From: a virus
Virus genome (UHGV): UHGV-1840329
Strand: one strand, 5' to 3'
DNA length: 10,323 nucleotides
A model generated the notes under the pieces. That model saw only the letters and a list, made by a program, of their open reading frames with translations. It searched no databases and was not told the DNA's origin. How positions within the stretch are numbered: position 1 is the first letter of the stretch; each line of letters opens with the position of its first letter. The position numbers and the translations under genes were made by a program. Positions 7,984-9,069 of this stretch are shown here, in pieces.

Positions 7984-8235
7984 ATGCGCAGTCCGTCAAA
8001 GATTGTCGCCGTTACTCCTGCGGCGATAGAGATCGAAAAACGCGCGATTGAAAGAGAGAAAAAAGGGCAATTCCGCATTGCCGCTCACCTTTGGCTTCAG
8101 TGTATGGATGTTGCTTCTGGTGATGTTGAACGTGCAAGGATCGCGGTTCGCAGGGACCAATGTATCACAAAAGGTAACGGCCTTCGCCGTGGCGACTATA
8201 GCGGCATAGGATGTTGTGGGGTGGTTTATGACTAA
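7984..8235 (+). CDS. PerC-family-like small transcriptional regulator
   Basis: Frame is open from a GTG at 7936 (track start); the ATG at 7984 has an AAGG Shine-Dalgarno 5 nt upstream and is my preferred start. The segment EKKGQFRIAAHLWLQCMD ... ERARIAVRRDQC resembles the conserved PerC/Pch core (GLWRRA ... W ... ER ... RR . C) as I recall it. Stop overlaps the methyltransferase start by 8 nt. Confidence 0.5.
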   Translation: MRSPSKIVAVTPAAIEIEKRAIEREKKGQFRIAAHLWLQCMDVASGDVERARIAVRRDQCITKGNGLRRGDYSGIGCCGVVYD

Positions 8236-8878
8236 GAAATACACACTAATCTATGCAGATCCACCCTGGGTATACCGGGACAAAGCCGCAGATGGTAATC
8301 GCGGTGCCGGTTTTAAATATCCGGTTATGAGTGTGCTGGATATCTGCCGCCTTCCTGTGTGGGATTTGGCCGATGAAAACTGTCTGTTGGCCATGTGGTG
8401 GGTGCCAACACAACCACTCGAAGCACTAAAAGTTGTTGAAGCCTGGGGATTCCGTCTGATGACGATGAAGGGCTTCACGTGGATAAAATGTGGTAGTCGA
8501 CAACCAGATAAACTGGTTATGGGTATGGGACACATGACTCGCGCCAATAGTGAAGATTGCCTGTTTGCGGTAAAGGGAAAACTACCTACGCGCATTAATG
8601 CAGGGATCGTTCAGTCATTTACCGCACCGCGGCTTGAGCATTCAAGAAAGCCAGATATCGTTCGTGAAAAACTTGTGCAATTATTAGGCGATGTTTCTCG
8701 CATTGAACTGTTCGCCCGCCAGACGTCTCATGGCTTCGATGTTTGGGGTAATCAGTGCGAAGACCCGGCAGTGCAACTACACCCTGGATACGCGTTGGAT
8801 ATTGGCGGATTAACAAATGCATTCAGCAATGCTCCGCTGTCACCAACAGACATCCAGGGGCGGGAGCGTGCTGCATGA
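8228..8878 (+). CDS. N6-adenine DNA methyltransferase, MT-A70/phage Dam-like family
   Basis: N-terminal LIYADPPWVY (DPPW catalytic motif) followed by conserved aromatic-rich blocks. ATG at 8228 is preferred over the track GTG at 8216 because GGGGTGG lies just upstream. No restriction endonuclease partner is evident in the window. Target sequence cannot be inferred. Confidence 0.8.
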   Translation: MTKKYTLIYADPPWVYRDKAADGNRGAGFKYPVMSVLDICRLPVWDLADENCLLAMWWVPTQPLEALKVVEAWGFRLMTMKGFTWIKCGSRQPDKLVMGMGHMTRANSEDCLFAVKGKLPTRINAGIVQSFTAPRLEHSRKPDIVREKLVQLLGDVSRIELFARQTSHGFDVWGNQCEDPAVQLHPGYALDIGGLTNAFSNAPLSPTDIQGRERAA

Positions 8879-9069
8879 ACAGGGCATCACCAGCAGATTT
8901 AAGAAAATGCCTTGAAACTGCAAACATGCTTGCACACAGCGGGATCAGGTTTGTTCCAATTCCCGCTGTCACTGATGCTGAATTTGCAACACTGTCAGCA
9001 ATATTCGAAAACAAAATTGAATCACTGGCAGCAGAAGCAGAGATGGAAGAAAATCAGCAGAACTATTAA
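8875..9069 (+). CDS. Small hypothetical protein (64 aa), coupled to methyltransferase
   Basis: ATG at 8875 overlaps the methyltransferase stop as ATGA, with GGGAG 8 nt upstream. The track ORF from 8755 overlaps the methyltransferase in another frame and is probably too long. Acidic C-terminus. No family recognised. Confidence 0.45.
   Translation: MNRASPADLRKCLETANMLAHSGIRFVPIPAVTDAEFATLSAIFENKIESLAAEAEMEENQQNY

Follow-up and report, generated by a model that had tools for sequence, protein, structure and literature searches.

The closest experimentally studied relative of the methyltransferase that is the subject of this work is encoded by a Shiga toxin (Stx) phage of Escherichia coli. Gong, Chakraborty and Koudelka (Nucleic Acids Research 2023, PMC10810198) reported that this enzyme, M.EcoPA8orf6770P/M.EcoGV, methylates GATC in vivo when overproduced, and that it binds in a 1:1 ratio the winged-helix protein PNB-2, which is the product of the upstream gene. 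The resulting complex favours 16S rRNA in 30S subunits, with a preference for RNA over DNA of more than 13-fold, and the enzyme raises spontaneous prophage induction and virulence. These authors also mutated the DPPW motif of the Stx-phage enzyme to APPA, and proposed that the C-terminal ~27 residues of the protein from E. coli strains producing Shiga toxin (STEC) contact PNB-2. A second described system is Orf63 of phage lambda, a dimeric helical protein with a helix-binding cleft, whose expression lowers the survival of the host and brings lysis forward (PMC10869804). The third is made of PerC from enteropathogenic E. coli (EPEC) and its Pch counterparts from enterohaemorrhagic E. coli (EHEC). 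Pch relieves H-NS silencing at LEE1, in the enterocyte effacement locus (LEE) (PMC4764244); LEE activation is limited to the group 1 Pch proteins, those of groups 2 and 3 being inactive, and the prophage group 1 pch genes are SOS-induced (PMC6265319). Members of all three families lie side by side in the DNA analyzed here, a stretch of 10,323 nucleotides from the virus genome UHGV-1840329 (in full, "the window"), in which the genes for a PerC-like protein, an MT-A70 adenine methyltransferase and a 64-residue protein with a DUF1382 domain overlap one another on the plus strand. Close relatives of two of the three genes, the methyltransferase and Orf63, are therefore already characterized; a literature search turned up no experimental study of the genes for the PerC-like, methyltransferase or DUF1382 proteins in the genus Uetakevirus, in which we place this locus.

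All the observations described below could be integrated in a picture that we consider likely: the locus would be the distal portion of an early-left operon (PL-type) in a temperate podophage of the phiV10/epsilon15 type (genus Uetakevirus), integrated at guaA, and would encode an orphan GATC-type methylase, a PerC protein directed to the phage itself and an Orf63 homolog that biases development to lysis. We are far more confident about what the locus is than about what the enzyme acts on. The segment from 7500 to 9100 matches E. coli Combat2C1 and other genomes with 100% identity, and is carried by 559 of 5426 complete E. coli genomes, that is, about one in ten. It is also 98% identical to phiV10 (p36 to p31; across 7525-9100), as well as to ZX5, phiv142-3, TL-2011b and the O157 typing phages 9 and 10. 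In Combat2C1, the prophage spans 39.6 kb and lies at the guaA 3' end; there the Prokaryotic Genome Annotation Pipeline (PGAP) names the three products 'PerC family transcriptional regulator', 'MT-A70 family methyltransferase' and 'DUF1382 family protein'. The three genes are real and conserved, not chance open reading frames (ORFs), and their annotation is already public in the phiV10 and epsilon15 records: this is a common prophage segment and not a special three-gene system.

The middle gene encodes the methyltransferase, as the initial annotation had recognized from its DPPW motif. Profile matches were judged in all cases against curated cut-offs, and the PHROGs assignments agreed with those of Pfam. 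Residues 5-176 of the protein matched the whole MT-A70 profile (PF05063, positions 1-172 of 172) with 80 bits, the cut-off being 23.9, and the PADLOC MTase_II model, which was built from type II DNA methyltransferases, yielded 257 bits. A PDB search returned ciliate MTA1 and human METTL3 as the nearest solved relatives. The DPPW motif is N-terminal and the segment binding S-adenosylmethionine is C-terminal, which corresponds to the permuted (beta) order, and the sequence RIELFARQ aligned with LEIFARR of MTA1 (7f4r); DPPW and the C-terminal ELFAR segment are both intact. The core of the protein (residues 1-187) showed 83% identity and 90% similarity to the methylase of the Stx2 phage F004, DPPW included. 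The terminator that was published for phiPA8, located between gp7 and gp6, is present in phage F004 with identical sequence, reproducing the arrangement gp7-terminator-gp6-gp5, and the F004 sequence fits the published mutagenesis primer except for the designed changes; because of these two matches, the F004 methylase can be regarded as the ortholog of M.EcoPA8orf6770P. The alignment of the window enzyme with this ortholog ends at residue 187, and the C-terminal 21-29 residues do not correspond: the 29 that close the window enzyme show no relation to the STEC tail. No ORF for PNB-2 was found in the window, and the PerC-like protein gave no alignment to the 130-residue PNB-2 ortholog. REBASE lists relatives of the enzyme as GATC enzymes. 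Other candidate counterparts were discarded: the Dam protein of coliphage T1 belongs to an unrelated family (PF05869) and gave no alignment, M.EcoGI and M.EcoGII are DPPY enzymes of 349 residues, and M.EcoGIX is plasmid-borne. In the int-proximal region of VT2-Sakai, no MT-A70 gene was found. Neither the window nor the Combat2C1 prophage in its full 39.6 kb carries an annotated restriction endonuclease, the YqaJ exonuclease being the only annotated nuclease of the prophage, and a profile search of the window ORFs gave no restriction endonuclease match; this absence rests on annotation, so that unrecognized nucleases are possible. As annotated, then, the enzyme is an orphan (solitary) methyltransferase, as had been proposed.

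The acidic protein (10 Asp/Glu against 5 Lys/Arg, counted from the translation) had been correctly described as such in the initial annotation and left there with no assigned role. It can now be identified as a homolog of lambda Orf63, whose structure is solved (8DSB). The match to DUF1382 (PF07131) reached 105 bits and covered positions 1-60 of the 60 in the profile, and the comparison with 8DSB yielded an E-value of 8.5e-13 and about 49% identity over 61 residues. The protein is, in addition, 51% identical to the product of the DUF1382 gene that follows the methyltransferase in phage F004. The DUF1317 gene found in relatives of the phage (see below) corresponds to lambda orf60a. Since an Orf63 homolog is present here and an orf60a-like gene in relatives, the segment between recT and int is the Uetakevirus counterpart of the lambda exo-xis region.

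The PerC-family assignment of the upstream product survived the profile searches. The match to PF06069 scored 30.1 bits (cut-off 22.6), BLASTP against EPEC PerC gave 40% identity over 60 residues with a pairwise E-value of 2e-10, and hhalign returned a probability of 95.5%. At the scale of a database, a tblastn search of plasmids with the PerC-like protein did not reach EPEC PerC, whereas the direct pairwise and profile comparisons did. Judged by these comparisons, the protein is a true, distant homolog of EPEC PerC. The subfamily to which it belongs is small (134 clusters). All of its 36 records in the phage collection are Uetakevirus members, with Escherichia, Salmonella, Klebsiella and Enterobacter as sources, and Citrobacter also counts among the hosts of the epsilon15/phiV10-type phages that carry it. 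The AlphaFold2 model, with a mean predicted local distance difference test score of 70.5, presents an N-terminal helix followed by three helices and a disordered C-terminus; the best Foldseek matches were MIT/TPR-like three-helix bundles, with E-values around 0.3, which is only a hint. Plasmid records also contain pairs of PerC-like and DUF1317 genes of the same subfamily, both in large plasmids of Klebsiella pneumoniae and in an E. coli 'plasmid' of 41 kb. The latter is probably the phage itself, and the pairs in plasmid records suggest prophage fragments or episomal phage.

The start of this gene deserves a separate comment. The first position given to it, ATG 7984 (83 residues), coincides with that of PGAP, while the phiV10 RefSeq record starts at ATG 7969 (88 residues). 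Yet the 16 residues encoded upstream of ATG 7984 are conserved at the protein level in 28 homologs (59-84% identity), with Y10 and H11 nearly invariant, and a comparison of the first 22 codons with those of the epsilon15 and Salmonella copies shows 7 synonymous changes and 8 non-synonymous ones. Epsilon15, BUCT554, Tyrion and one Salmonella prophage present an ATG at the exact position of GTG 7936, preceded by the same GAGA(A/G)GG element, and the start at GTG 7936 creates a GTGA overlap with the stop codon of the upstream ORF, which encodes a membrane protein of 38 residues. On the basis of this conservation, the gene most likely begins at GTG 7936 and encodes 99 residues; ATG 7984 is probably 48 nt too late, and the phiV10 start at ATG 7969 probably gives too short a protein as well. 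The start codon in RefSeq is thus flagged as probably mis-called.

The initial annotation took the three genes as a translationally coupled set. Sequence and ORF calls confirm that they overlap, by the 8 nt ATGACTAA (8228-8235) and the 4 nt ATGA (8875-8878), with 7936, 7969 and 7984 as the alternative starts of the first one. The restriction to three genes does not hold: with the GTG start, the chain comprises five (alpA, the 38-residue membrane ORF, PerC-like, MT-A70 and Orf63-like), with overlaps of 4, 4, 8 and 4 nt. Neither does the notion of a functional unit. The order alpA, membrane ORF, PerC-like, methyltransferase and int is kept in epsilon15, SPC32H, Tyrion, BUCT554, BUCT711, a Klebsiella phage and prophages of Salmonella and Enterobacter, but in these relatives one to three extra genes (DUF1317, DndB-like, PDDEXK_5 or small ORFs) are placed between the PerC-like gene and the methyltransferase, and the gene after the latter is often not DUF1382. 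Methyltransferase homologs with 70-87% identity, whose contexts were taken from cluster representatives and their contigs, lie between NinB and NinD in the nin regions of lambdoid phages, or come behind DnaB, or follow lysis genes beside ParB-methyltransferase genes, with no PerC nearby; a methyltransferase scan of viral contigs returned only loci that were 97-100% identical. Because these homologs travel with unrelated neighbors, the methyltransferase would be a self-sufficient accessory gene and, since other genes intervene in the relatives as well, the overlaps would reflect the ordinary compaction of phage operons.

The 8-nt overlap in which the PerC-like gene ends (…GTTTATGAC TAA) serves any gene that comes next, DUF1317 in the relatives (epsilon15, L099 2793-2800) and the methyltransferase in the phiV10 group, and the invariant C-terminal GVxYD of the PerC-like protein may partly reflect the embedded start site. 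The unrelated phage F004 also has a DUF1382 gene that comes after its MT-A70 gene and overlaps it. A natural in-frame PerC-MT-A70 fusion, P0003 (297 residues; L103 2501-3394), was also found, in only two contigs, and is due to the loss of one T in GGTTTATG. A second fusion, P0001 (263 residues), derives from an internal deletion; each fusion occurs in only one or two assemblies, so that a sequencing error is possible. Two further arrangements were observed among the relatives. In SPC32H (L005 1437-2504), the gene between those for the PerC-like protein and MT-A70 encodes a DndB-like protein of 355 residues (PF14072, 162 bits). In a prophage at guaA of Enterobacter hormaechei (L104 1998-3217), a nuclease-like PDDEXK_5 gene of 175 residues (26.7 bits, cut-off 26.1) directly precedes and overlaps the MT-A70 gene, whose product has a divergent, insert-bearing middle region but shares its C-terminal tail with the window enzyme; the two genes may form a restriction-modification pair.

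The coordinates of the locus are collected in Table 1. After the repressor gene come its terminator-like hairpin, a promoter-like site, a small orf, the genes for YqaJ exonuclease and RecT, and then the five-gene chain. A sequence scan found no further promoter-like or terminator-like site on the plus strand between 5112 and 9069, and the site at 5084-5112 is the presumed PL-type early promoter.

Table 1. Features of the early region in the window (positions of the whole stretch).
Feature	Position	Strand	Basis or remark
Repressor gene	4408-4992		Upstream of the promoter-like site
Terminator-like hairpin of the repressor gene	5013-5032		Between the repressor gene and the promoter-like site
Promoter-like site TTGACA-17-AATTAT, candidate PL-type early-left promoter	5084-5112	+	10/12 consensus matches; consensus match only
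AlpA-family excisionase/regulator gene (phiV10 p36, epsilon15 gp33), first in the chain	7578-7826	+	Phage_AlpA 24.2 bits (cut-off 21); PHROG 66
38-aa single-pass membrane ORF (phiV10 p35, epsilon15 gp32)	7823-7939	+	Shares ATGA with the alpA stop and GTGA with the PerC-like start
PerC-family small helical protein, 99 aa with the likeliest start (orthologs epsilon15 gp31, phiV10 p34)	7936-8235	+	Pfam PerC; PHROG 868, 207 bits over 1-99
MT-A70 (beta-class) N6-adenine methyltransferase, 216 aa; core aa 1-187, lineage-specific tail aa 188-216	8228-8878	+	Pfam, PADLOC, PDB relatives
DPPW catalytic motif (motif IV) codons, aa 11-14	8258-8269	+	
Acidic 64-aa homolog of lambda Orf63 (DUF1382); closes the operon, convergent with int	8875-9069	+	Pfam DUF1382, 105 bits
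P4-type tyrosine integrase	9073-10323	-	Converges on the chain; prophage at the guaA 3' end (PMC9782041)

Some observations on the surrounding DNA can be added. The conserved 38-residue membrane ORF is left unannotated by PGAP in a 100%-identical E. coli genome. An ead/Ea22-like gene on the minus strand of the window (285-1579) consists of two consecutive ORFs (285-923 and 920-1579), and one part of it is marked as an incomplete pseudogene by PGAP in an identical genome. Outside the window, the Combat2C1 prophage (L102 10715-13793) contains two YafO-family toxin genes and a BRO-N antirepressor-like gene near a truncated tail fiber gene.

How would these genes work in the phage? A repressor identical to that of the window blocks lytic transcription in ZX5 (PMC9782041). 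Under the prophage repressor the operon would be silent, and after infection or induction its genes would be co-transcribed from the PL-like promoter, with the overlaps of 4 to 8 nt giving coupled translation through operon compaction. The methyltransferase, as a member of the M.EcoGV/M.EcoPA8orf6770P group, would most likely N6-methylate the adenine of GATC, or of a relaxed GATC, on replicating phage DNA early in lytic growth, and this modification would protect or fully methylate the progeny DNA. Methylation of RNA is a real possibility for the window enzyme, since its Stx-phage relative prefers 16S rRNA when combined with PNB-2. The PerC-family protein would probably act as PerC/Pch do, through contacts between protein and nucleoprotein that relieve H-NS-type silencing, phage genes being a likelier target than host genes. 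Finally, the Orf63 homolog would be a dimeric helical adaptor that biases development to lysis, as reported for lambda and Stx phages. In regard to the anti-restriction role contemplated in the initial annotation, the idea is plausible, although the closest studied relative points instead to the methylation of GATC DNA and/or 16S rRNA as a way of tuning induction (PMC10810198).

Several points weigh against this picture. M.EcoPA8orf6770P, when purified alone, is almost inactive on DNA, unmethylated GATC DNA included, or on RNA (PMC10810198), and for this reason the assignment of a stand-alone GATC DNA methylase is not secure. Neither of the published activities (on GATC and on 16S rRNA) transfers cleanly to the window enzyme, because its tail is different and PNB-2 is absent. 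A GATC enzyme would, moreover, be largely redundant, since E. coli already has Dam, and the observed/expected ratio of GATC (0.72 in the prophage and 0.77 in the host flank) is uninformative on specificity. With respect to the PerC-like protein, the profile match spans only positions 5-50 of 90, the model for ANR (AraC negative regulator, NF033650) stayed below its cut-off (23.6 bits versus 32), and Foldseek gave no match with E <= 0.001 for the AlphaFold2 model in the PDB. The assignment of the early promoter is a consensus match only and, more generally, all functional statements on this phage group rest on homology.

The near inactivity of the 83%-identical Stx-phage enzyme in isolation, and its 1:1 binding to the upstream product, bring to mind a different notion, considering that MT-A70 enzymes usually require partners (PMC10810198): that the window protein is part of a heteromeric enzyme, in which the PerC-like and/or the Orf63-like protein takes the role of PNB-2 as targeting subunit, directing methylation to a specific RNA, such as 16S rRNA, or to a DNA site, and thereby tuning the timing of induction or lysis. 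The methyltransferase gene is overlapped on both sides, the P0003 fusion joins the two proteins in frame, the MT-A70/DUF1382 pair recurs in an unrelated Stx2 phage, Orf63 possesses a cleft for binding helices (PMC10869804) and the predicted PerC-like structure resembles, weakly, a protein-binding helical bundle rather than a helix-turn-helix. Even so, we regard a heteromer as unlikely. The PerC-like protein has no similarity to PNB-2, it is separated from the methyltransferase by one to three genes in relatives, where the downstream gene is often not DUF1382, and the 70-87% identical homologs live next to NinB/NinD, DnaB or lysis genes; the fusion, arising from a single-T deletion in a run of T, could be an error or a dead allele, and lambda Orf63 functions without a methyltransferase. 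The stronger proposal, in which the Uetakevirus MT-A70 protein is inactive alone and uses its co-translated PerC-family and/or Orf63 partner as a swappable targeting subunit, seems to us very unlikely. If true, it would mean that PerC/Pch activators or exo-xis proteins act partly by directing the methylation of adenine in RNA or DNA, and would provide a concrete biochemical role for the poorly understood PerC/Pch family and for lambda Orf63, which is functionally uncharacterized. An enzyme dedicated to RNA, acting on rRNA or on phage or host mRNA without PNB-2, by means of its own C-terminal tail or a host factor, is in our opinion decidedly improbable. METTL3 and ciliate MTA1 are the nearest solved relatives, homologs are named 'N6-adenosine-specific RNA methylase IME4' in several sources, and the Stx-phage holoenzyme displays the mentioned preference for RNA; yet that preference needed PNB-2 (PMC10810198), which the window lacks, MTA1 is itself a DNA enzyme, M.EcoGV methylated GATC DNA in vivo, and both the REBASE relatives and the PADLOC type II model speak for DNA.

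A last alternative concerns the host, and is the one that the initial annotation had in mind when it noted that PerC/Pch regulators activate virulence loci. This is established for Pch, and an extension of it would have the PerC-like protein activating virulence or other chromosomal loci, as PerC/Pch do at LEE1, with the orphan methyltransferase as an epigenetic regulator in the lysogen. The homology to EPEC PerC is true, Pch proteins are prophage-borne, with group 1 pch genes induced by the SOS response, phiV10 infects LEE-carrying O157:H7, and the Stx-phage methyltransferase alters virulence via spontaneous induction (PMC10810198). The link to this subfamily found no support, and we find such host control very hard to credit. 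Only group 1 Pch activate the LEE (PMC6265319), and lysogeny by ZX5, a phage 97.7% identical, left growth, biofilm, HeLa adherence and virulence unchanged (PMC9782041). Transcriptional silence in lysogens is on record for other prophage methyltransferases (PMC4659465, PMC5778455). The genes studied here come last in a repressed early operon, inside which the scan showed no promoter-like site. In addition, the subfamily is confined to Uetakevirus phages, and most of their hosts are not known to carry the LEE. A role directed to the phage, such as countering H-NS on phage DNA, would therefore be more economical for the PerC-like protein than one directed to the host.

As it stands, the finding matters little, because it arrives again at an annotation that the phiV10 and epsilon15 genome records had already made public. 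Its modest value lies in offering a natural comparison to the reported Stx-phage rRNA methyltransferase, with the same catalytic core and a different tail and neighbors; such a contrast could help to decide if the widespread MT-A70 enzymes of phages act as Dam-like DNA methylases, as RNA methylases, or as either one according to the partner. With respect to phiV10, gene order, overlaps, the P4-type integrase and the guaA attachment are all shared, there being essentially no difference, and the phiV10 record already annotates the products as PerC-family activator, DNA methyltransferase and DUF1382 protein (p34-p33-p32). The phiV10 group departs from epsilon15 and from the Salmonella, Klebsiella and Enterobacter relatives in that the DUF1317 (lambda orf60a-like) gene has been lost and DUF1382 is the last gene. 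The PerC-like protein shares with PerC of the EPEC plasmid pMAR2 and with Pch of EHEC prophages a homologous core, a small size and its location in a mobile element, and differs from them in a conserved N-terminal extension of 30 residues and in its C-terminus. The DUF1382 protein has the size of lambda Orf63 and the same place between the recombination genes and int (the exo-xis region), although the lambda gene neighbors orf61 and orf60a and the one in the window adjoins a methyltransferase. As for the enzyme itself, it resembles M.EcoPA8orf6770P/M.EcoGV in its core, in belonging to an early operon near int and in the overlapping DUF1382 gene placed directly after, while the Stx2a phages carry PNB-2 and the antirepressor-like PNB-1, both absent from the window, where the upstream position is occupied by the unrelated PerC-like gene.

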